Positions 11,243 through 60,258 of a DNA stretch of 64,000 bases are shown piece by piece; the stretch's first letter is position 1; the number at the start of each line of letters is the position of its first letter. A model generated the notes under the pieces. It ran no database searches. It saw nothing but the letters and a program-made list of their open reading frames with translations, and was not told where the DNA came from. Position numbers and translations under genes: made by a program. The stretch comes from Patescibacteria group bacterium (GTDB taxonomy: Bacteria; Patescibacteriota; Patescibacteriia; Magasanikbacterales; GWA2-37-8): positions 78,670 to 142,669 of the forward strand of contig JBAZUP010000002.1 in NCBI GenBank assembly GCA_041661385.1, given 5' to 3'.

Positions 11243-11980
11243 TTACTGGAAAACGCAGGTGTAGAGTCCGGTGAACGGATAGAACGCCTGGGTCATGGAG
11301 ATCAATTGGTTGGTCACCGGTGGGGATGTGTAAACGACCTGACTGGCAGGATCGCGAGCCAAGAGTGCGCCTTCAAGATCATTCATCTTGGCCATACACA
11401 CCCCATTGTTAACATACAGGGTGATGATGCCACCTTGTGGTCCGATTTGAGATGGGCAACCCTTCACCGCGCGGTTGTCGAGGTCACTGCGCCACTGGGC
11501 GCAGATATCGACCGGCGGGTCGTTGACCTTCAGGTTCACTGAGGCCGGGTTGCTGGAATTGCCAGCTTTGTCGGTCGAGATGGCCGTGAGGGGGAAGGAC
11601 CCAGGAGTCGTTGGGATCCACGAGCAAGTGACCGTGAAGCCGCCGTACAACCCGTACGTGACGTCGGTCGTCGTGCAGACGATCGTGTTGTTCACCTTGA
11701 AGTCAACGCGATCGATACCGCTCGTCGGAGCGCCGGGGTCGCTCACCGTGGCGGTGAGCGTGACCGTGGTGCCAACGACGATGTTGGTGTCGGCGGTCGG
11801 CGCCGTGATGACGACGGTGGGTGGGGTGATGTCGGGGTTCTGGACGCACTTGTTCTGGGTAGCGTCCCAGTGCTCGCCGGACGGGCAGGTCGGAGGGGTG
11901 TTCGTGTCTTCGCCGCCGCCACCGCAACCGACGATGAAAGCGACGATGACGACGGCGATGATGACGAAGAACTTCGTCAT
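11243..11980 (-). CDS. GC-rich islet: lipoprotein with Ig-like (Big-type) beta domain
   Basis: Start chosen at MTKFFVIIAVVIVAFIVGCGGGG, a lipobox (track ORF extends to 12079). T/V/P-rich beta-strand repeats (TPPTVVITAPTADTNIVVGTTVTLTATVSD). Region is visibly GC-rich against AT-rich flanks. The many overlapping ORFs on both strands are GC artefacts. Confidence 0.5.
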   Translation of the reverse strand: MTKFFVIIAVVIVAFIVGCGGGGEDTNTPPTCPSGEHWDATQNKCVQNPDITPPTVVITAPTADTNIVVGTTVTLTATVSDPGAPTSGIDRVDFKVNNTIVCTTTDVTYGLYGGFTVTCSWIPTTPGSFPLTAISTDKAGNSSNPASVNLKVNDPPVDICAQWRSDLDNRAVKGCPSQIGPQGGIITLYVNNGVCMAKMNDLEGALLARDPASQVVYTSPPVTNQLISMTQAFYPFTGLYTCVFQ

Positions 11981-12341
11981 CGAGGTGCGACGGATCGGCA
12001 GGGAATTGGTCATGGGCTTCTCCAGGTGCATGGGAATGGTGAGTGGCATCAACTTTGCGTCGAGGGTCTGTTGTTTCATGATGAAACTTCCTTCGGCCTC
12101 AAGGGCCCGTTGTGGCCCTTTGGGCCGTTAAACTTCTACAGACATTTTCAGAATTCTTTGAAGCTAAGGCAGAAATAGAAAATAATGGATTATTTACTAC
12201 CTATTTCCACCTTAGCTTTTCCAACTTCATAGTGGTTATTATTGGTCAAAAAATGACTAAAATAACACATTGTAAAGAGCAAAAGATGTAATAAATACAT
12301 CATTGTTTTTCAACCCAATTCTATCATAAGAAAAACATATA

Positions 12342-37117: not shown

Positions 37118-37192
37118 TCCGGGATAGTTGAGTGGTACAACGCCACGCTGTTAACGTGGATATCCTAGGTTCGAATCCTAGTCCCGGAGCCA
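37118..37192 (+). tRNA. tRNA-Asn (GTT), CCA encoded
   Basis: Acceptor tccggga/tcccgga, anticodon stem ccacg/cgtgg with loop ctGTTaa, T-arm ctagg-ttcgaat-cctag. Its 3' end overlaps the recombinase stop region. Confidence 0.85.
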
Positions 37193-38677
37193 AGTAGGAT
37201 AAAGGGTTTTTTCGGCGAAAATACGCCAGCCCCTTTTGGCCAAGAATTCAAATTTTTTGCCTTTCACCGTAAAGTTCGAGCCGACATTTTTTAGAAAGGT
37301 ACGAATTTCATTGAGATCGCCTGCACGGGCGATTTTTTTGGCTTCACAACTGGATAAAATAAATTCCCTCATCGGTTCGAGCCAATTAGCGCCCTTGTTA
37401 TTAATTTCTTTCAATTTGCCTTCAGCTACCATTTTTTGATTCAGCAGTTTTTCTTTCTTTGTCAAATAATCGGCTTTATCTATTGTGCTGTCAAGATGCG
37501 AATCGAGCAATTTATCCATTTTTCCCTTTATTGCCGTTATTTGGCCTTCTAAGGCAACTACAAGGGCGCTGGATGCTTGTTTATTTGATTCCGCATCATT
37601 ATCTAGTTTAGCAAGCATCTGCTCGCCCAGGTCATCAGGTAAAGAAACTTTTTGCAAAACCTCTTTCAGCTGTTCGGCCAGCGCTTCTTCACGAATATAT
37701 TTTTCCTCGCATGTTCCTATTTTCTTGGTACAGCGATAGTACACATGACCCTTTTGTCTTTCAGCCGTTATATAGCAACCACACGAACCACATTTCATCA
37801 AACTGCAAAAAATATATTCGTGTTTCTTAATTTTGTGGGGCCGACCACGGTTTTGCATTATTGTTTGCACTTCGTCAAAAAGTTTCTTGGTAATCATTGG
37901 CTCGTGTTTTCCCTCGTGCAATTCGCCGTTGTATTTAAACACGCCAGAGTAAAAAGGATTTTTGAGAATTGATTGAAGTACGCTTACTGATAGTTTACTA
38001 TTGCTTTGGGTGCGTAGTCCTAAATCATTAAATTTTTCCGCAAGGACTTTTAAAGGATATTCACCAGTCGCGTACAATTCAAAAATCCTTTTTACAAGTT
38101 TATGCTTTGTCTTATCAATAAACATGGTGTGGTTTTTGAGATCATTCAAATACCCAAACGGCGCGCGGCCAGGGCATTCACCTCGGCGCAATTTTTGGCG
38201 CAAACCCCGTTTTACATTCTCGGAAAGATTATCAATGAAATATTTACTCTGGCCGAAAGCAATATTAAGCATAAACTTGCCTTGGGGCGTGTTTTCGAAC
38301 CAAAAAGTCGGAAATTTGAGGGAATTTATTTTTCCGGTGTCCACCAGGTAAATTATTTGTCCGCCGTCGATTGGATTACGAGCCAAACGATCAGGATGCC
38401 AAGCCAAAATGCCGTCGGCCTTTCCGCTATTGATAATTCGTAACATTTCACCGAACACAGTTCGGCCAGGCTGTTTGGCAGTTTTTGCCTCGCAAAGCGA
38501 GGTGACGATTTCAAGTTTTTCCTTTACGGCAAATTCTTTTAACTCGGCCAGTTGTGCGTCAATCGATAATACTTGTCGCTCTTCCTCGTCGGTCGATTTA
38601 CGAGCGTACAAAATGTATTTGGCCATACGATTATCAATTATATTTAGAAAAGTTTGTTTTTGGCGTCGTGCGACCAC
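37178..38677 (-). CDS. large serine recombinase (resolvase catalytic domain + recombinase domain + zinc ribbon + coiled coil)
   Basis: YARKSTDEEERQ...SIDAQ resolvase-type catalytic N-terminus (likely true start MAKYILYARKST, about 38626). CGSCG...C zinc ribbon. C-terminal coiled coil. Confidence 0.85.
   Translation of the reverse strand: MVARRQKQTFLNIIDNRMAKYILYARKSTDEEERQVLSIDAQLAELKEFAVKEKLEIVTSLCEAKTAKQPGRTVFGEMLRIINSGKADGILAWHPDRLARNPIDGGQIIYLVDTGKINSLKFPTFWFENTPQGKFMLNIAFGQSKYFIDNLSENVKRGLRQKLRRGECPGRAPFGYLNDLKNHTMFIDKTKHKLVKRIFELYATGEYPLKVLAEKFNDLGLRTQSNSKLSVSVLQSILKNPFYSGVFKYNGELHEGKHEPMITKKLFDEVQTIMQNRGRPHKIKKHEYIFCSLMKCGSCGCYITAERQKGHVYYRCTKKIGTCEEKYIREEALAEQLKEVLQKVSLPDDLGEQMLAKLDNDAESNKQASSALVVALEGQITAIKGKMDKLLDSHLDSTIDKADYLTKKEKLLNQKMVAEGKLKEINNKGANWLEPMREFILSSCEAKKIARAGDLNEIRTFLKNVGSNFTVKGKKFEFLAKRGWRIFAEKTLYPTWLRD
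37187..37263. repeat. IR-A left copy (77 bp). It includes the tRNA-Asn 3' end and the recombinase 3' end.
   Basis: Reverse complement matches 38681-38757 (gagccaagtaggataaagggttttttcggcgaaaatacgccagccccttttggccaagaattcaaattttttgcctt). Confidence 0.8.
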
Positions 38678-38680
38678 GAC

Positions 38681-38757
38681 AAGGCAAAAAATTTGAATTC
38701 TTGGCCAAAAGGGGCTGGCGTATTTTCGCCGAAAAAACCCTTTATCCTACTTGGCTC
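38681..38757. repeat. IR-A right copy (inverted), just upstream of the recombinase start
   Basis: Reverse complement of 37187-37263. Explains the shared peptide KKFEFLAKRGWRIFAEKTLYPTWL in two track ORFs. Confidence 0.8.
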
Positions 38758-38853
38758 GGAATGTACGAAAGAATACGAACGGAATTTACGGAATAGGGCG
38801 AGCGGAAGGAGGGGTTTGGGGAGGAATTCCGCCCGCCCACTGGCGCGCTTTTT
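38754..38853. repeat. IR-B left copy (100 bp)
   Basis: Reverse complement matches 44089-44188 with one mismatch (gctcggaatgtacgaaagaatacgaacggaatttacggaatagggcgagcggaaggaggggtttggggaggaattccgcccgcccac...). Confidence 0.8.
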
Positions 38854-38992
38854 AAAAACTGCCAAACAGCCTGAAAAAATGTCGGCTCAAACTTTACGGT
38901 GGCCAAAAGCAAACTTTTCTTTTCTCTGCGCTTGCCCCACCCGCCCGTTGCGCGCGCAGCGGGGTAGGAACTCCCTTTATAAATACTGAATA

Positions 38993-41242
38993 CTACACGT
39001 CAAATATAATATTCTCCTGCGCTTTGGCGTAAATATCAAGTCTATTTTTTAAATCGATTCTATTGACCAACCAACCCTGTAATTCGCACTGGTGGATAAA
39101 ATCATTAATTCTATTAATACCATATATTTCTTTTAGGGTTACCACGAGGCCAAACTTAATACCATCTCCATCTCTCGTGCCAAGTCTTTCTTTTGTTTTA
39201 ACACTTATCCCCCACATGCTATTATCATATGCTTTCCTAGGTAATAATTTTTCGCCAAATGTTTCCTGTATGTGTTTAGTATTGTCCCACTTGCGAAAAA
39301 ATTTTCTTGCGTCACCCTCATACATATAATGTGACTCGCCGTCGTCAACGCTTTGAGTGTTTCTGTTTATTGTCTTAATACCTTTTGTGTGAACCCTTCC
39401 AAGATACACATCCAGTTCGGTATTGGTATAATCTACTCCTTGGTTTATCGAACATTTGGGAAAATAACAGAGTGTAGCTTTTGCTACAAAGGGATATTTT
39501 TTATCATCAATAGGAACAGGAAGTTTGTAGTTGTATGTGTCATACATCTCTGAAACACCATTGATAATAAACCTTATCTCGTCATCGGGTGATTTAATTA
39601 TATCTTCTATGCGTTTCGGTACTATTCCATGGCCAATTAGTGCTGCAAGTCTTTGGTCGCACGCTTTATTACTCCATCCGGAAGCAGAATCCACAATTAA
39701 GGCTTTGGCTGTCTCTCTACTAAGACCCAAGACCTCGATTAGATATGCAACTTTTCTAGTTATCCAAGGTGCCGCAAAAGAAGTTCCCGTGCGAAGACCT
39801 TCACCGTTTGGTTCGCAAACTCGAATAAAATCTTCAGTAATCATATCACCCCCATAGCTACAGACATCTGGCTTGTTAAAAAATGACAAAACCAGCCCTT
39901 TTCTAGAATAAGAGGCGGGTGTATTTGTGCTGTTTACAGAATTGACCACTATCGAGTTTATGGAATCTGCTGGAGCGCCTATTCTTCTTTCGGTCTTAGG
40001 GTCTCTATTGTTGGTTCCCGCGATAATAAAAATTATATCTTTTTCGTATTGAATTTTGTCGAGTATGGCAGCTTCTGGCGATATTGAATTCAGGTTAATT
40101 TCGTTATCTGATCCCAAAGACAAGTTCCACACTTTAATGTCAGGGTTTGCTTCAACAATTTCTTCTATTAATTTCATAATTGTGAAGGCGCTGTACTGAC
40201 CCTTGGCTGCAACGCCAAAGTGCCGTACCTTAAACCTACCACAACCATCGTCGAGATCGGGGTTAATAACCGGTCCGTCCACAATAATAGAACTTATTGC
40301 CGTTCCGTGTTCATAGTCCTTTTGATCAAGTGGAATTTCATCATCGATCATTTTTTTGAATTTAACCCACTCAGAAAAATAAACCCTCGTATCAAACATG
40401 GTATCAATAACACCTATAGTTGGTTCATTATTTGGAGAATCAATAATATGACTATTTTTCTGGACCGTCTCGCTCAAAACATCATCATAACTTAATTTGG
40501 ATATATCCTCCGTTGCCATCGCTATAAGGTAAGGGGCTTTTTCCGTTAGGATTGTGATTTGAGGTGGCCTTAAGAGCATGGTGGTGTCACTGATCACTCT
40601 TTCTTCGGGGACATCAATGCCAATTTTTTGTAAAATTGTAATTGCATCAGCACTAGTTTTATAAATAGTTATAATTGATTGATTCTTTGTATTGATTCTG
40701 TTATCTGGAATTCCGAACCCTTCTACATAGTGCGAATCCGCAATAATATTGCAAAACGTTGATCGAGTAAGTCCATACTTATTAAATTCTATACCAAAAC
40801 TTCCAAGCTTTTCGAGCCCGTCAGCATCAATACTTCCTTTGAACTCGATGTTAAGTAATATGATACTTTTACTTAATTTTTCGATTGTATCATCAATTAT
40901 ATCGCCATGAACAAAATGAGTAATGATGTGTTTTTTTTCTCGGTCGCTGTCTGAGAATCTTGCGCCAACAACTGTGCTATTTGCGTGCATTTGACCTTTA
41001 GAAAAAAAGCCACTGATTCTATTACTTTTCGCCACAACGGTCGTGTACCTAACATCAATAAGGGCCCCACCAAGAACCTTCTCTTTTTTCCAATATTCTC
41101 CAAGTTGTTCCAGCCCCACTGACAGCGTCGTCAAATATTTAGATGTTACAGGAGGTGCGTTTTTTGGAATATTGCGAAATCCCGGCCTGTTTTTACTTGG
41201 CCGCTGCTGAAAGGAACCTTTTAACTGAAGTAGGTCATTCAT
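38993..41242 (-). CDS. S8-family subtilisin-like serine protease with N- and C-terminal extra domains (IetS-like)
   Basis: Catalytic triad contexts: IGVIDTMFD (Asp), HGTAISSII (His), GTSFAAPWITR (Ser). 749 aa, no signal peptide. Follows the AAA ATPase with a 3-nt gap. Confidence 0.8.
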   Translation of the reverse strand: MNDLLQLKGSFQQRPSKNRPGFRNIPKNAPPVTSKYLTTLSVGLEQLGEYWKKEKVLGGALIDVRYTTVVAKSNRISGFFSKGQMHANSTVVGARFSDSDREKKHIITHFVHGDIIDDTIEKLSKSIILLNIEFKGSIDADGLEKLGSFGIEFNKYGLTRSTFCNIIADSHYVEGFGIPDNRINTKNQSIITIYKTSADAITILQKIGIDVPEERVISDTTMLLRPPQITILTEKAPYLIAMATEDISKLSYDDVLSETVQKNSHIIDSPNNEPTIGVIDTMFDTRVYFSEWVKFKKMIDDEIPLDQKDYEHGTAISSIIVDGPVINPDLDDGCGRFKVRHFGVAAKGQYSAFTIMKLIEEIVEANPDIKVWNLSLGSDNEINLNSISPEAAILDKIQYEKDIIFIIAGTNNRDPKTERRIGAPADSINSIVVNSVNSTNTPASYSRKGLVLSFFNKPDVCSYGGDMITEDFIRVCEPNGEGLRTGTSFAAPWITRKVAYLIEVLGLSRETAKALIVDSASGWSNKACDQRLAALIGHGIVPKRIEDIIKSPDDEIRFIINGVSEMYDTYNYKLPVPIDDKKYPFVAKATLCYFPKCSINQGVDYTNTELDVYLGRVHTKGIKTINRNTQSVDDGESHYMYEGDARKFFRKWDNTKHIQETFGEKLLPRKAYDNSMWGISVKTKERLGTRDGDGIKFGLVVTLKEIYGINRINDFIHQCELQGWLVNRIDLKNRLDIYAKAQENIIFDV

Positions 41243-41245
41243 AAA

Positions 41246-42283
41246 CTACCCCCTAAGATCTCGTGATATCTGACTTTTTGATATTCCTGTGAGCATCTCC
41301 ATATCCCTAACAGAGAAGCCCTCCCTTTGTAAGTATTTTAAATCCGTTTTCTTATTCTTTGAATCGATAGATTCGTACAATTTTTTTAGATAGTCGAACT
41401 CATTGTTTGGATCACTAAATGCGAGCGAGGTTTTTATAATATTTTTTAGCTCACCGGGGTATGGCATTTCATCCATTAATGAAATAATTTTTTTAAACAA
41501 TCGCATATTGCGACCTGCAAATTTAAACTTTACTAAAAAATCATTAAGTATTGATTCAGCAACTTCAATTAAGTCGTTTCGACTGTATCTATTGAAGTTA
41601 ATGGTGGAATCGAATCTTCTGACTAATGCTTTATCAAATTTAATATAAAGGTTAGTCGTGGCAATAAGGATGGTACTAGCACTTAGACTGTCTAAACCCT
41701 TTAGCACCGACGATGTTACACGTCCCATTTCCCGTAAGTCGTTGGAATTTATCCTATCAAGAGCAATTGCATCTATTTCGTCAAAAAGTACGATCATCTT
41801 TTCTGGGTGGGGAAGTTCTTTTAGCTCTTTAAAGATAGTAACAATATTTTTTGATGTTTGACCAAGTTTGCTATCAATAACATTTTCAAAATCAACTGCA
41901 AACAACTCCCGCTCAAGTATTCTAGCTACTTGCTTGGCGGTCTCAGTCTTTCCTGTCCCAGGCTCGCCCTCAAACAAAAACTTATTTATTCCCGCGTTAT
42001 GACCTATTGAATTAATAATCCCTAAAATATCATTCTTGATTGGGGTGGGAAGTGGAAGAGCGCCTCCTGACAGACTTATTTTGGTCAAAAAAGGAAAATT
42101 TTGTTCGTTGTCTTGTGGTACGAATGTATTCGTGCCGGATAATAGCGCCATTATATATTCAGCAAGCTGCTGGTCGCCGTTTGCGTCAAAATATCGAGCT
42201 ATACTATAAGCTTCATTTCTAAAAGCCCCATCGTTTTTTTCTGCGTGATATTTTATTAAATTTAATATATTTTTTTTTCGCAT
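41246..42283 (-). CDS. AAA+ ATPase (IetA-like)
   Basis: Walker A GEPGTGKT, Walker B IVLFDEID, second region of homology ALVRRFD. Confidence 0.8.
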   Translation of the reverse strand: MRKKNILNLIKYHAEKNDGAFRNEAYSIARYFDANGDQQLAEYIMALLSGTNTFVPQDNEQNFPFLTKISLSGGALPLPTPIKNDILGIINSIGHNAGINKFLFEGEPGTGKTETAKQVARILERELFAVDFENVIDSKLGQTSKNIVTIFKELKELPHPEKMIVLFDEIDAIALDRINSNDLREMGRVTSSVLKGLDSLSASTILIATTNLYIKFDKALVRRFDSTINFNRYSRNDLIEVAESILNDFLVKFKFAGRNMRLFKKIISLMDEMPYPGELKNIIKTSLAFSDPNNEFDYLKKLYESIDSKNKKTDLKYLQREGFSVRDMEMLTGISKSQISRDLRG

Positions 42284-42536
42284 ATTTTCCTTTTATTTTT
42301 ATTCTAACACACCAGGGACGCATTTACAAGAAAATGGGACACAAACATAAAATCGACTACATTTCGCGAATAAGATAGGGCTTTTGACTTATTGTTTATT
42401 TCGGCGTATAATTATGCGACCACATTTTGGAGAAAGCGGTTTGTTAAGCAAAATATTGTTAATAAACCGAGTTTCCTAAAAAGAAACTCCTTTGTGCAAT
42501 GATGCATGAAGCCGAAACGAAGAAAGGGAAACACCA

Positions 42537-43475
42537 ATGCACCGTTCACTGTTGTTTGTTGTTCTCTTCATCACGGCCGTCGCAGTCGGCTGTGGTCGGC
42601 AGGGTTCGCCGGATGTGGCACAGGACCTTGGTGGCGCAAGCGCCTTCAAGGCTGTGCAGAATCTCAACCCCGGCCTCACCATCTACAAGGCATCCGGAGG
42701 CGAGCTCCGCGGAAGCTATCGCGCCAACAACAGCGCGATCCACTTCCAAGCCTTGCGCGGAGAGAATCTTGTGCTCGGCGTCAACACGGTCGATCCGGAT
42801 GCTCCCGCCTACGCCGTTTCCGTCCGGATCATCGACCAGGAAGGAAACCCTGTTGCGATCGCCATCGGCGATAGCGATGAAAGGATTTCCGCCTGGCAGG
42901 AGAAAGTGGAGGGACTCGGCACGGGTTCCAACCCCGACCTCAGTGAAACCTTCGTGCTCGCGCAGGAGGCCACAGATGTCCTGTCCCAGACCGTGACGAG
43001 CGGATTCGACGAGGAGATCAAGACCTTGAAGCGACGCAGCTTCACAGCTGCACCCGTCGCAAACGCACCCGGCCAGTCGAGCAAGATGCAGGCGCTTTCC
43101 TCGACGTGGAGGTACTGGCTCCGGATGTTCCGGAAGGATGCCAACTTCAACGGCAACTTCGCCGATCACTCCGCCGTCATCGTGAATGTGACCAAGCCAG
43201 ACGGAACGATCCTGAACTACGTCACCTGCAACCACGGTACCTGCGCGGACGATCCGTCCATGCAGTTCCGGTGTCAGAACACGGTCTACCCGGCAAGCCA
43301 GCGTCCGTTCGCGATCTTGCCGTGCGATTCGGTTTCTTCCTATGGCTTCTTCTCGGGCCAACACGTCTGCAACGATGATACTCTGGTGCAAGTCAACATG
43401 GTCGTGTACGGCAATAGCAGTCTCACGACCTGCACCGACTCGTCGTTGCGCCTCTGGGCACCTTCTTGCAGCTAG
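42537..43475 (+). CDS. GC-rich islet: secreted lipoprotein (312 aa)
   Basis: Lipobox LFITAVAVGCG, SD gaaagggaaa upstream. GC-rich block 42480-43545. 15-bp perfect hairpin gatgtcggcgctcgc...gcgagcgccgacatc after the stop. The minus-strand 310-aa Arg-rich ORF is an antisense artefact. Confidence 0.55.
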   Translation: MHRSLLFVVLFITAVAVGCGRQGSPDVAQDLGGASAFKAVQNLNPGLTIYKASGGELRGSYRANNSAIHFQALRGENLVLGVNTVDPDAPAYAVSVRIIDQEGNPVAIAIGDSDERISAWQEKVEGLGTGSNPDLSETFVLAQEATDVLSQTVTSGFDEEIKTLKRRSFTAAPVANAPGQSSKMQALSSTWRYWLRMFRKDANFNGNFADHSAVIVNVTKPDGTILNYVTCNHGTCADDPSMQFRCQNTVYPASQRPFAILPCDSVSSYGFFSGQHVCNDDTLVQVNMVVYGNSSLTTCTDSSLRLWAPSCS

Positions 43476-43609
43476 CAAGTCGGCCTAACCAGTAGGCGAT
43501 CACAAAGGATGTCGGCGCTCGCTCCTCGCGAGCGCCGACATCGCAACTTTTACACATATTTGTTATAATACCCACATATTTATAATAATACTTATTTATA
43601 ATAATACTT

Positions 43610-44047
43610 ATGAAAAATATTATATTATCTCCAGTGCCCTTTAAAAAAATAATTACTATTTTTTTTGCTGGCTTAGTTGGTGCCTTGATATTTGGCTTAC
43701 TATTTGGTTTGGTCGGTTTATTGTTTGCCAACAATCTCGGGTTTAAGGTCGCTATTGGTTCAGAAGAATTAACTATGGGAGCAAGCGCGATATTTTACTG
43801 TCTTCTTAGTACGCCTTTTGGCGCAATGTTTGGTGTTTGGATTGCCTCTAAGATGGCAGGTTATAAATCTAATTATTTGTATTATTTTTTAACGACTTTA
43901 TTTTTAGTTGTTATTGGTCTATTTTTTAGAGACTATTTTAATTTGTTTGCATTTGTGGCATATGCCGCTGTCTGTTCAATTACCCTAACAGCTGTAATTA
44001 ATTATTTTGCTAAAATTAAATCGCAAAATGTATCTACTCAGAAGTAA
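43610..44047 (+). CDS. small polytopic membrane protein
   Basis: Four hydrophobic helices, AT-rich native composition. Lies inside the IR-B-bounded segment. Confidence 0.5.
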   Translation: MKNIILSPVPFKKIITIFFAGLVGALIFGLLFGLVGLLFANNLGFKVAIGSEELTMGASAIFYCLLSTPFGAMFGVWIASKMAGYKSNYLYYFLTTLFLVVIGLFFRDYFNLFAFVAYAAVCSITLTAVINYFAKIKSQNVSTQK

Positions 44048-44088
44048 TAATTTTGTAAGTCTAGTTAAAGGAAAAACTTGAAATCGTC

Positions 44089-44188
44089 AAAAAGCGCGCC
44101 GGTGGGCGGGCGGAATTCCTCCCCAAACCCCTCCTTCCGCTCGCCCTATTCCGTAAATTCCGTTCGTATTCTTTCGTACATTCCGAGC
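44089..44188. repeat. IR-B right copy (inverted)
   Basis: Reverse complement of 38754-38853. Confidence 0.8.
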
Positions 44189-44214
44189 AAATACAAAAAA
44201 GCACCCTAAAATGG

Positions 44215-44357
44215 GTGTTTTTTTGTATTTTGTTTTGCGTCTGGATTCGAACGGAAGATGGTAATAAACGAAGTTTCTTACTTGCCGAGGAAAGTCCACG
44301 AAAACCCGAAGGTTGTCGTGAGAGAGAACGAAGTGAGCGCATTCGAATAGCCAAGCG
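44215..44357 (+). repeat. tRNA-3'-adjacent structured element, copy C (next to the tRNA-Asn 3'-end repeat)
   Basis: Inverted T-loop copy ctggattcgaacgg (44241-44254). Core cttgccgaggaaagtccacgaaaacccgaaggttgtcgtgagagagaacgaagtgagcg (44281-44339) is about 95% identical to 60165-60232. Followed by cctagtcccggagc. Confidence 0.6.
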
Positions 44358-44371
44358 CCTAGTCCCGGAGC
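44358..44371 (+). repeat. direct repeat of the tRNA-Asn 3' end (putative attR core)
   Basis: cctagtcccggagc is identical to 37177-37190. A degenerate third copy tctagtcctggggc sits near 44685. A hairpin terminator follows at 44372-44404. Confidence 0.6.
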
Positions 44372-44759
44372 ATAATAAATAAGCACACCATAATGGTGTG
44401 CTTATTTATTATGATTCAAAGGTTGGATTCGTTTTATTTTATAATATTGCTATAATTAACGTATAATGAAAGTCAAATTATGAAAAAATACCATAGACGA
44501 ATACTATATTCTATTTTCGCAATAGTATTTGGTGTGTTTATGTTTATATATGGTGGGTACGATGACAGTCCGGGTGGGCAAGGATTGGGGCTATTACTAA
44601 TTATTATTGGTATTGTTGGATTAGTAAAAAACAAAAAAATATCTTCGTAAAGCTAGTAAAATGAGCACGTTTGAATAGTGAAGCGTCTAGTCCTGGGGCT
44701 AATAAAAATATTGACAAAGTGCTAATTTAGTGCTATTTATAAGACAAGGAGGCAAAATC

Positions 44760-57299: not shown

Positions 57300-58862
<1,563 letters not shown>

Positions 58863-59000
58863 GGAGATACTCAGTCGAAAGACTGTGATTATCCATAGTC
58901 GAATCCCGATATATAGTGAAACTTCGGTTTCTCTATGGGATGAGTAGACGAAAGGTTTTTGTCACTTTGTATTGTGAAAACAATAACACTGACTAAAAAG

Positions 59001-59030
59001 CTATCCTTCGGGATAGTTTTTTAGTTATGA
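59001..59030 (+). terminator. hairpin (UUCG loop) about 140 nt after the 16S 3' end
   Basis: aaaaagctatcc-ttcg-ggatagttttttag. Confidence 0.5.
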
Positions 59031-59069
59031 AAATGGAATTTAAAATTTGTTTTATTAAGATGTTGATTC

Positions 59070-59098
59070 TTGACTTTTCGGTCGTTTTGGGGTATGTT
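59070..59098 (+). promoter_or_regulatory. sigma70-like promoter TTGACT-N17-TATGTT for the 59132 gene
   Basis: ttgacttttcggtcgttttggggtatgtt. SD aaagga precedes the ATG. Confidence 0.35.
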
Positions 59099-59131
59099 GA
59101 AAATGCCCAAGCGGGCCGAAAGGAATGACAC

Positions 59132-59455
59132 ATGCAATTACTGCTAATAGTCATTTACATTCTGGCCCAGATTTTGGGAAACGGTGGAAGCGCTCAAAAA
59201 AGCGCTCCGGCCTCTGCGCCCATAAAGGCACAGCTCAACTACGCAATTCTCAGGTCTGATTGCAAGGCAATCCCCGTCGATGCTGCCGGTAGGCAGTTCA
59301 TGGAGATTAATCTTCAAGAATTAGACCCGGAGACGGACGAAAGCAAATCAAAACAATCGTGCAAAATTGGCGCGAACACATCAATCATTAACCCCGTAAA
59401 GGCGGTGTGGATCAAAAAAAAGGAGGTACCGCGACCGGTAGTTCATTATATTTAG
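59132..59455 (+). CDS. small secreted/TM protein (107 aa) between 16S and tRNA-Val, islet-like
   Basis: N-terminal hydrophobic segment (LLLIVIYILAQILG). 15-bp perfect palindrome ggaaggtggcgcgcta-g-ttagcgcgccaccttcc after the stop (59465-59500). Confidence 0.4.
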   Translation: MQLLLIVIYILAQILGNGGSAQKSAPASAPIKAQLNYAILRSDCKAIPVDAAGRQFMEINLQELDPETDESKSKQSCKIGANTSIINPVKAVWIKKKEVPRPVVHYI

Positions 59456-59581
59456 GAGGACCTGGAAGGTGGCGCGCTAGTTAGCGCGCCACCTTCCACA
59501 CAATACACAATACCCGGTGTATTTTTGTTTGGCTTTAGCTTGACTTTTTGACAACTTTTGTATATAATTTTCAGTACTTAT

Positions 59582-59658
59582 GGGCAATTAGCTCAGTTGG
59601 TTAGAGCGTTACATTGACATTGTAAAGGTCAGAGGTTCAACTCCTCTATTGCCCACCA
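59582..59658 (+). tRNA. tRNA-Val (GAC), CCA encoded
   Basis: Acceptor gggcaat/attgccc, anticodon stem ttaca/tgtaa with loop ttGACat, T-arm agagg-ttcaact-cctct. Confidence 0.85.
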
Positions 59659-59773
59659 GAGTTGAACAAGGGTTGGAAAGGGAAGTATTCCCTTTCTTGT
59701 TGAGGAAGAGTATTGAGAAACCCGAAGGTTTCTCAAAGAGCGTAAGCGAGTTCAACTCCTCTATTGCCCACCA
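59659..59773 (+). repeat. tRNA-3'-adjacent structured element, copy A (after tRNA-Val)
   Basis: Begins gagttgaac, the reverse complement of the tRNA T-loop gttcaactc. Hairpins gaaaggga-agta-ttccctttc and gagaaacc-cgaa-ggtttctc. Ends with a 24-bp direct repeat of the tRNA 3' end, gttcaactcctctattgcccacca (59750-59773 = 59635-59658). Confidence 0.6.
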
Positions 59774-59787
59774 AACTATGAAGTCAT

Positions 59788-60003
59788 ATGGAAAATGAAT
59801 CAAGTTTAGAAATTAAGAAATTGAATGAGTTGGCAGATAAGCTAGAAGAGCTAAATGGTGGTAAAGAGATTCCTGGTGCTTTAGGAGTATTTGTGAAATT
59901 GCTGAGGGTAGGAAAACGCGAAGAAGCCGTCTCAAGAGTAAAAAATGAATTGTTCGACAAATTGACCGATGAAGAAAGAAAAATAATTGGCGATTATTTA
60001 TAG
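59788..60003 (+). CDS. small hypothetical helical protein (71 aa)
   Basis: ORF between tRNA-Val and tRNA-Ile. Charged helical sequence. Confidence 0.35.
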   Translation: MENESSLEIKKLNELADKLEELNGGKEIPGALGVFVKLLRVGKREEAVSRVKNELFDKLTDEERKIIGDYL

Positions 60004-60011
60004 TAAATAGC

Positions 60012-60085
60012 GGGCGTGTAGCTCAGATGGTTAGAGCGCGTCACTGATAATGACGAGGTCCCCGGTTCGATTCCAGGCACGCCCA
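60012..60085 (+). tRNA. tRNA-Ile (GAT)
   Basis: Acceptor gggcgtg/cacgccc, anticodon loop ctGATaa, T-arm cccgg-ttcgatt-ccagg... No encoded CCA. Confidence 0.85.
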
Positions 60086-60250
60086 CATAAATAAAAATTC
60101 CCAACAGGGGATTTTTTATTTATGTTAGCCTGTGAATCGAACGGGAAAGGGAGAAAACGGGAGTTTTCTCTTGCCGAGGAAAGTCCACGAAAACCCGAAG
60201 GTTTTCGTGAGAGCGAACGAAGTGAGCGAGTGAGATTCCGCACGCCCACA
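60086..60250 (+). repeat. tRNA-3'-adjacent structured element, copy B (after tRNA-Ile)
   Basis: Terminator-like hairpin. Inverted T-loop copy cctgtgaatcgaacggg. Hairpin gagaaaac-ggga-gttttctc. Core cttgccgaggaaagtccacgaaaacccgaaggttttcgtgagagcgaacgaagtgagcg. Partial direct copy of the tRNA-Ile 3' end, gattccgcacgcccaca. Confidence 0.6.
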
Positions 60251-60258
60251 TATAAAGA

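Follow-up and report, generated by a model that had tools for sequence, protein, structure and literature searches.

An IetA/IetS-type ATPase and protease pair of a divergent clade, probably carried by a serine-recombinase element at a tRNA-Asn gene of a Patescibacteria genome

The ietA-ietS gene pair and its family

The window analysed in this study, a stretch of 64,000 nucleotides (nt) of contig JBAZUP010000002.1 (GenBank assembly GCA_041661385.1) from a Patescibacteria group bacterium, carries two adjacent genes, here named ietA and ietS, which encode a 345-amino-acid (aa) AAA+ ATPase and a 749-aa S8 family protease, respectively (Table 1). The original prediction, made from the sequence alone, had taken this pair for an IetAS-type anti-phage module on a mobile element, and the two open reading frames (ORFs), the 3-nt spacing and the motifs that it quoted were all confirmed. 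The TAG stop codon of ietA is followed by TTT and then by the ATG of ietS, with a Shine-Dalgarno-like AGGGGG within the 3′ end of ietA ahead of ietS, and an AAGGA ribosome-binding site lies ahead of ietA, downstream of a promoter-like site. The identical proteins present in NCBI are named as those of a Patescibacteria group bacterium.

IetA, a classic-clade AAA+ ATPase, is laid out as an N-terminal helical region (residues ~1-95), an AAA core (100-280; Pfam AAA, E 5.7e-24) and a helix-turn-helix-like C-terminal tail (~315-345), and its translation contains GEPGTGKT (Walker A), LFDEID (Walker B) and ALVRRFD; both Walker motifs, together with sensor-1 and the RRF arginine, are conserved across 78 IetA sequences. 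In IetS, a subtilase domain (~270-540; Pfam Peptidase_S8, E 6.4e-31) lies between an N-terminal domain (1-~260) and a beta-rich C-terminal one (~545-749). Each of the S8 triad contexts, VIDT, HGT and GTSFAAP, is present, and D280, H312, N411 and S488 are invariant in 108 homologues, which bears out the intact triad proposed earlier; along their full length the N- and C-terminal extensions are conserved in the same homologues. Neither IetA nor IetS contains a hydrophobic segment (maximum KD19 1.1), and no signal peptide or transmembrane (TM) segment was found on IetS; thus both proteins are predicted to be soluble and cytoplasmic, as had been stated for the protease. The C-terminal tail of IetA (GFSVRDMEMLTGISKSQISRDLRG; window positions 41246-41340) resembles a helix-turn-helix and is partly kept in the 78 homologues. 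Pfam helix-turn-helix matches to it are weak (E 0.025-0.07; HTH_19, E 0.025), and the tail may be involved in autoregulation or DNA binding.

In the PADLOC collection of hidden Markov models (HMMs), the best matches of the ATPase were four IetA models (top model PDLC02196, E 2.4e-42, residues 4-343), the next non-IetA family being TRIP13 at E 3.5e-16, and the best matches of the protease were eight IetS models (top E 4.6e-63, residues 254-735), with a generic subtilase model reaching only E 3.7e-6. The top NCBIfam matches were IteA_antiphage (E 2.2e-33) for the ATPase and IteS_antiphage for the protease, and the runner-up for IetA was CdvC (E 1.6e-14). Housekeeping AAA+ families in NCBIfam stayed far under their cut-offs on the ATPase of the window (FtsH 33 vs 600 bits, CbbX 24.9 vs 459, ClpA 22.6 vs 993), and Cdc48 and PAN also scored far lower than IteA. 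Chance neighbourhood of a housekeeping AAA+ protein (FtsH/Cdc48/CbbX-like) and an ordinary secreted subtilisin was weighed against these results. The AAA core alone does resemble Cdc48/p97/AFG2 in the PDB (E 1e-20 to 1e-15), and the protease core is like that of ordinary subtilases, but the top HMM matches of both proteins, a protease without signal peptide or TM segment, an N-domain confined to ~750-aa IetS-like proteins, and the strict adjacency, co-divergence and patchy cross-phylum distribution on plasmids, viral contigs and islands described below have effectively refuted this explanation. E-values of 1e-42 and 1e-63, together with a pair conserved in 77 of 77 loci, are far beyond chance.

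The canonical reference for the comparison was the IetAS (IteA-IteS) pair (Gao et al. 2020; PADLOC ietAS, PDLC02196/PDLC02197; DefenseFinder Gao_Iet; NCBIfam NF042959/NF042956), for example that of the Dongshaea marina plasmid (WP_108653110). Several scores weigh against treating the pair of the window as its equivalent: IetA reaches 115.9 bits vs an NCBIfam IteA equivalog cut-off of 510, IetS reaches 147.8 bits vs an IteS equivalog cut-off of 900, and on the best PADLOC IetS model (PDLC02197) IetS of the window scores ~210-212 bits vs 937 for the canonical protein of the Dongshaea plasmid. On the same model, a C. perfringens plasmid IetS that is 57 % identical to that of the window scores 196 bits. 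The pair is a member of the IetAS superfamily, but not an equivalog of the reference pair, and the proposed match to IetA/IetS stands for family, gene order and architecture (PADLOC, NCBIfam and hhalign) and not for close identity.

BLASTP of IetS against the Dongshaea plasmid protein, named IteS by the annotation pipeline PGAP, gave 25 % identity (E 3e-28) over residues 263-735 and nothing in the N-terminal 250 residues, and BLASTP of IetA against the ATPase partner of that IteS gave 33 % identity in the AAA core. When profiles of this clade (n = 108 sequences) and of the canonical clade (n = 40) were compared by hhalign, residues 13-737 of this IetS clade aligned with 21-760 of canonical IteS (probability 100 %, E 4e-43), with an invariant AKSNR/AKSHR motif in the N-domain common to both. 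This near-full-length alignment indicates that the protein has the IetS architecture throughout and falls in a separate clade. Thus the large N- and C-terminal domains, which had been regarded as uncharacterised, are present and conserved, but both match domains of canonical IteS. The N-terminus of the tested IetA of B. cereus m1293 falls on a different PADLOC model (PDLC04232), which also tells against a close relationship with a pair of known activity, and no experimentally tested member of this clade was found. With ~25-33 % identity to canonical IteS/IteA, the pair belongs to a distinct, divergent IetAS clade, whose members PGAP labels just "S8 family peptidase" and "AAA family ATPase".

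Linkage, spread and the carrier element at tRNA-Asn

Relatives of the pair are encoded by at least 586 species-representative genomes, and the clade, counted on the N-domain, amounts to ~380 clusters at 50 % identity. A locus-level analysis was carried out on the 80 best genome loci, of which 77 were informative and the other three were truncated upstream. In all informative loci (77/77), the gene immediately upstream of ietS, on the same strand, codes for an IetA homologue, with intergenic distances of -29 to +9 nt. Pairwise identities among the IetA proteins track those among the IetS proteins (r 0.85, Mantel 0/999), which indicates that the two genes travel as one unit. No conserved third gene was found in the 3.5-kb flanks of the 77 loci, and the commonest neighbour of the pair is a large serine recombinase (9/77 loci).

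At least 14 of the 80 best loci belong to Patescibacteria (Shapirobacteria, Magasanikbacteria and many Saccharibacteria), and the others include Bacillota, Actinomycetota, Campylobacterota, Bacteroidota, Fusobacteriota, Mycoplasmatota and Pseudomonadota. Plasmid copies exist, among them that of C. perfringens (57 % identical), which has ParA/ParB as neighbours on a plasmid of 56 kb, and relatives also occur in two uncultivated phage records and on nine IMG/VR contigs, eight of which carry IetA upstream. With Janthinobacterium or Acidithrix proteins the identity is 63-65 %, no different from that with other proteins of the candidate phyla radiation (CPR), which indicates horizontal transfer. 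Coupled in translation and always side by side, the two genes are inherited together and move horizontally, in agreement with the co-occurrence and mobility that the original prediction had proposed to check. Its further remark that such a pair would be notable in a CPR-like genome did not hold: the pair is common across bacteria and not unusual for CPR. Among the matches listed, no literature pairing ietAS with Patescibacteria was found.

The pair lies next to tRNA-Asn, the probable integration target, whose 3′ end is overlapped by the 3′ end of a large serine recombinase gene (Pfam Resolvase E 1.9e-19, Recombinase E 1.7e-16, Zn_ribbon_recom E 5.9e-8; nearest NCBIfam families XisF/CcrB, under cut-off), and the cargo is bracketed by a 103-nt inverted repeat at 98 % (38751-38853 and 44089-44191). 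The integrase-associated, inverted-repeat-bounded module at a tRNA gene that had been proposed was thereby recovered. Four sites with a common GAGC core were identified at 37187, ~38754 (internal, minus strand), 44185 and 44368, which join the tRNA-Asn end to arm A, arm B′ to arm A, arm B′ to hairpin X, and a tRNA-like end to hairpin Y, respectively. The tRNA/A junction at 37187 and the B′/X junction at 44185 are the reciprocal products expected from recombination of a B′/A attP with a tRNA/X attB, which would delimit an element of ~7.0 kb, about 37187-44188. The trailing unit after tRNA-Ile at 60.1 kb has a similar make-up, in which a terminator hairpin is followed by a conserved block of ~100 nt and then by a repeat of the tRNA 3′ end; it supports X as the native sequence behind tRNA-Asn. 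The direct copy of the tRNA-Asn 3′ end at 44358-44371 is either an alternative right boundary or an older att remnant. An exact-pattern scan for hairpin X and an ApbE protein-seeded scan of metagenome contigs gave nothing usable as an empty target site.

A clean equivalent was found in a Saccharibacteria genome (L014, 4488-11467), where an independent element of ~6.9 kb at tRNA-Gln is flanked by a 20-nt direct repeat of the tRNA-Gln 3′ end, 6.9 kb apart, and holds a large serine recombinase, ietA, ietS and a few small ORFs; further relatives likewise abut tRNA genes. The flanking genes in the window are housekeeping ones (ApbE, PPIase, PAP2, DHH and SMC), which makes this a single-system mini-island rather than a defence island and counts against a defence context. 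Of the context that had been described as typical of defence islands, only the mobile element at a tRNA gene therefore remains. Most probably, the pair is an IetA/IetS module of a divergent clade and is carried as cargo by an element of ~7 kb that has a large serine recombinase and is inserted at the tRNA-Asn 3′ end.

Table 1 Coordinates of the gene pair, its carrier element and co-resident features in the window
Feature	Position	Strand	Remark
ietA, 345-aa AAA+ ATPase	41246..42283	minus	ATG start; ORF list and PADLOC/Pfam
ietS, 749-aa S8 protease	38993..41242	minus	ATG start; ORF list and PADLOC/Pfam
Promoter-like site TTGTAA-17-TAGAAT with TG, upstream of ietA	42301..42329	minus	Consensus match only
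tRNA-Asn (GTT), probable integration target	37118..37192	plus	ARAGORN; Rfam 70.5 bits
Large serine recombinase, 499 aa from GTG (482 aa from ATG at 38626)	37178..38677	minus	Pfam
attL-type junction, tRNA-Asn 3′ end + GAGC + arm A (37187-37263)	37177..37263
Right end: reverse-complement fragment of 38503-38526, arm B′ (44089-44191), attR-type junction (B′, then GAGC at 44185, then X), terminator hairpin X (44189-44230)	44066..44230
14-nt direct copy of tRNA-Asn 3′ end (CCTAGTCCCGGAGC)	44358..44371	plus	Longer motif 2 copies vs 0 expected
Internal inverted attP-type junction: A′ (38681-38757) joined at GCTC to B (38751-38853)	38681..38853
Gapless mosaic of reverse-complement recombinase-region fragments 38467-38486, 37265-37292 and 38646-38664	38854..38920		Unexplained
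312-aa lipoprotein-like gene, GC 0.60, function not assigned	42537..43475	plus	Co-resident cargo, not part of IetAS
145-aa multi-pass membrane protein, partner of the 312-aa gene	43610..44047	plus	Co-resident cargo

The inverted internal junction and co-resident features

Between the recombinase gene and ietS lies an internal attP-type junction, in which A′ is a 100 % reverse complement of arm A and B a 98 % reverse complement of 44089-44191, so that flanks of 77 + 103 nt are identical or near-identical to the element ends, but inverted. As a consequence, long, near-perfect inverted repeats enclose the recombinase gene on the one hand and the cargo on the other, and B is followed by a mosaic of recombinase-gene fragments, a fourth of which, also reverse-complemented, occupies 44066-44089. 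An internal inverted copy of attP is unexpected in large-serine-recombinase elements, and this repeat architecture, which may be an artefact, is the sole truly odd feature of the locus.

The repeats and mosaic could have arisen in assembly, from a mixture of integrated and excised or strain-variant reads, the real element being a simple attL-recombinase-cargo-attR island. This explanation, which we consider possible though rather unlikely, draws on a break of the ENA megahit assembly within the recombinase gene (contig L088 ends at 38487 and contig L001 starts at 38486) and on six single-nucleotide polymorphisms (SNPs) between L088 and the window in a 25-nt stretch inside that gene (38285-38309); the break and the SNP cluster point to strain variation or graph complexity. 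In addition, a Logan contig ends within both B arms, the full recombinase product, looked up in three forms, is on record in no assembly, and no comparable inverted repeats were found in the relatives L085, L086, L012, L014 and L005, of which L014 and L086 carry related elements. On the other side, L001 follows a 100 % identical path from the recombinase 5′ end (38486) through A′, B and the mosaic to ietS, the recombinase ORF and its Pfam domains run unbroken across 38486/38487, and a de Bruijn error is unlikely to make the recombinase-to-A′ junction without supporting reads.

If the repeats are genuine, the excised form could be a circle in which two inverted ~180-bp attP-containing repeats (B′-GAGC-A) set the recombinase segment apart from the IetAS cargo segment, in a layout comparable to that of the repeats in the yeast 2-micron plasmid, although we regard this as improbable. 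One attP copy would then have been used for integration at tRNA-Asn and the other left intact inside, inversion of the recombinase or cargo segment or alternative integration orientations could be allowed, and the antisense recombinase fragments in a would-be ietAS read-through transcript could throttle recombinase expression. An architecture of this kind, coupled to a toxin or defence module, would have no described counterpart among serine-integrase elements.

Beside ietA, the element holds a two-gene cassette (42537-44047), whose 312-aa lipoprotein-like gene has a GC content of 0.60 against a background of ~0.38. There are only 26 homologues and no Pfam match for the cassette, and since long ORFs run on both strands, the gene callers disagree on the real one. 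A 71 % homologue of the 312-aa gene (GC 0.58) beside IetAS in L099/L100 had suggested a third IetAS component; this was rejected, as two other homologues have no IetAS nearby and 0/80 genome loci carry the gene. A second high-GC patch (up to 0.65; 11243-12079, minus strand) codes for a lipoprotein-like protein of 278 aa, whose lipobox reads FIVGCGGG, and no relation between the 278-aa and 312-aa proteins was detectable.

Units trailing tRNA genes were found at 60087-60256 (behind tRNA-Ile) and 44189-44371 (right of the IetAS element), each made up of a terminator hairpin, a ~100-nt block with an exact core of 31 nt that occurs twice (GCCGAGGAAAGTCCACGAAAACCCGAAGGTT) and, last, a short duplicate of the 3′ end of the tRNA before it. 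A further trailing unit (44372-44699) contains a 56-aa membrane ORF and ends in a decayed copy. These units, for which no Rfam family was found, have the appearance of remnants or of miniature elements sited at tRNA 3′ ends. At 44288, the string GAGGAAAGTCC had suggested an RNase P RNA, which was rejected with no Rfam match at the gathering threshold or at E<=1; the string belongs to the 2-copy block. Further along (57300-60086), a 16S rRNA gene is followed by tRNA-Val and tRNA-Ile, and as no 23S gene occurs in the next 4 kb, the rRNA operon appears unlinked.

Proposed function and comparison with known IetAS-type systems

IetAS was first described as a stability and incompatibility determinant of pTiC58, in which IetS is the toxin and IetA the antitoxin, and its homologue SgiAT aids maintenance of the island SGI1 (PMC5006074). 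Neutralisation of IetS toxicity by IetA is documented for the pTiC58, SGI1 and ietHAS homologues only (PMC5006074, PMC13069673). Protection against phage has been reported for homologues of two other clades (Gao 2020 cited in PMC13069673; 10.1101/2022.08.27.505566); defence needs the protease activity, and no ietA mutant can be obtained (PMC13069673). The B. cereus IetAS has an abortive-infection phenotype, with yosG of SPbeta as the trigger (10.1101/2022.08.27.505566).

By analogy with these systems, the pair of the window is inferred to act in abortive-infection defence and/or element addiction. IetS would be a growth-arresting protease and toxin, and IetA its antitoxin, which would restrain it in an ATP-dependent manner, as in the studied homologues. 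Proteolysis by IetS would be released by a phage-encoded protein, or by loss of the element, which would end the supply of IetA. The released IetS could then act on cellular or phage targets, and the infected or cured cell would stop growing, so that one module might provide both abortive-infection defence and stabilisation of the carrier element. In our view, selection would act mainly on defence, and addiction would come with it as an inherent by-product.

Three further points bear against a role in defence. We know of no phage of this host, and the anti-phage activity of this clade is drawn from homology only. Moreover, how IetAS acts against phages is not known (PMC13069673), so the release of the protease as set out above is a model.

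The primary role could instead be addiction (post-segregational killing) in the service of the small island, or of plasmids elsewhere, with phage defence absent or incidental in this clade. The pTiC58 stability determinant and SgiAT-assisted island maintenance provide precedents (PMC5006074), the C. perfringens copy adjoins ParA/ParB on its plasmid, the pair is the main cargo of a 7-kb element whose other recognisable function is the recombinase alone, and a large serine recombinase is the commonest neighbour among relatives. Yet SgiAT expressed from its own promoter caused no post-segregational killing (PMC5006074), most of the 77 loci have no recombinase within 3.5 kb, homologous systems of two other clades protect against phage, and the two roles are compatible with each other. 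We hold a primarily addictive role to be a minority possibility and keep to defence with addiction as its by-product.

Existing knowledge of the IetAS system is left unchanged by this pair, which adds a clean IetAS-type protease/ATPase example in an ultra-small Patescibacteria genome. One conserved clade circulates as a strict two-gene unit among Patescibacteria, Bacillota, Campylobacterota, Actinomycetota, plasmids and viral contigs, and is a reasonable target for working out the IetAS mechanism. Mini-islands of ~7 kb with a serine recombinase at tRNA genes appear to be one vehicle for IetAS modules in CPR.

Compared with canonical IetAS, the pair has the same two-gene order and tight spacing, the three-part architecture of IetS with the triad, AKS(N/H)R and the C-terminal domain, and an IetA AAA+ core of 33 % identity, whereas identity is only ~25 % for IetS, and BLAST fails to pick up the N-domain. 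Like pTiC58 IetAS and SGI1 SgiAT, in which a protease and AAA-ATPase pair resides on a plasmid or on an integrative, mobilisable island, the pair of the window resides on an integrative element; unlike them, it shows ~27-28 % similarity to the Agrobacterium/Rhizobium plasmid proteins over residues 373-718 only, and toxin/antitoxin behaviour is known for theirs. As a member of the same superfamily, the B. cereus m1293 IetAS offers the best functional precedent from a Gram-positive background, but it differs in the PDLC04232 match of its IetA N-terminus, the stretch on which the comparison was made. With ietHAS (Liu-DS4), the pair has the IetA and IetS core in common, whereas the SNF2 helicase of that system was not found beside this clade in the 3.5-kb flanks of the 77 loci.

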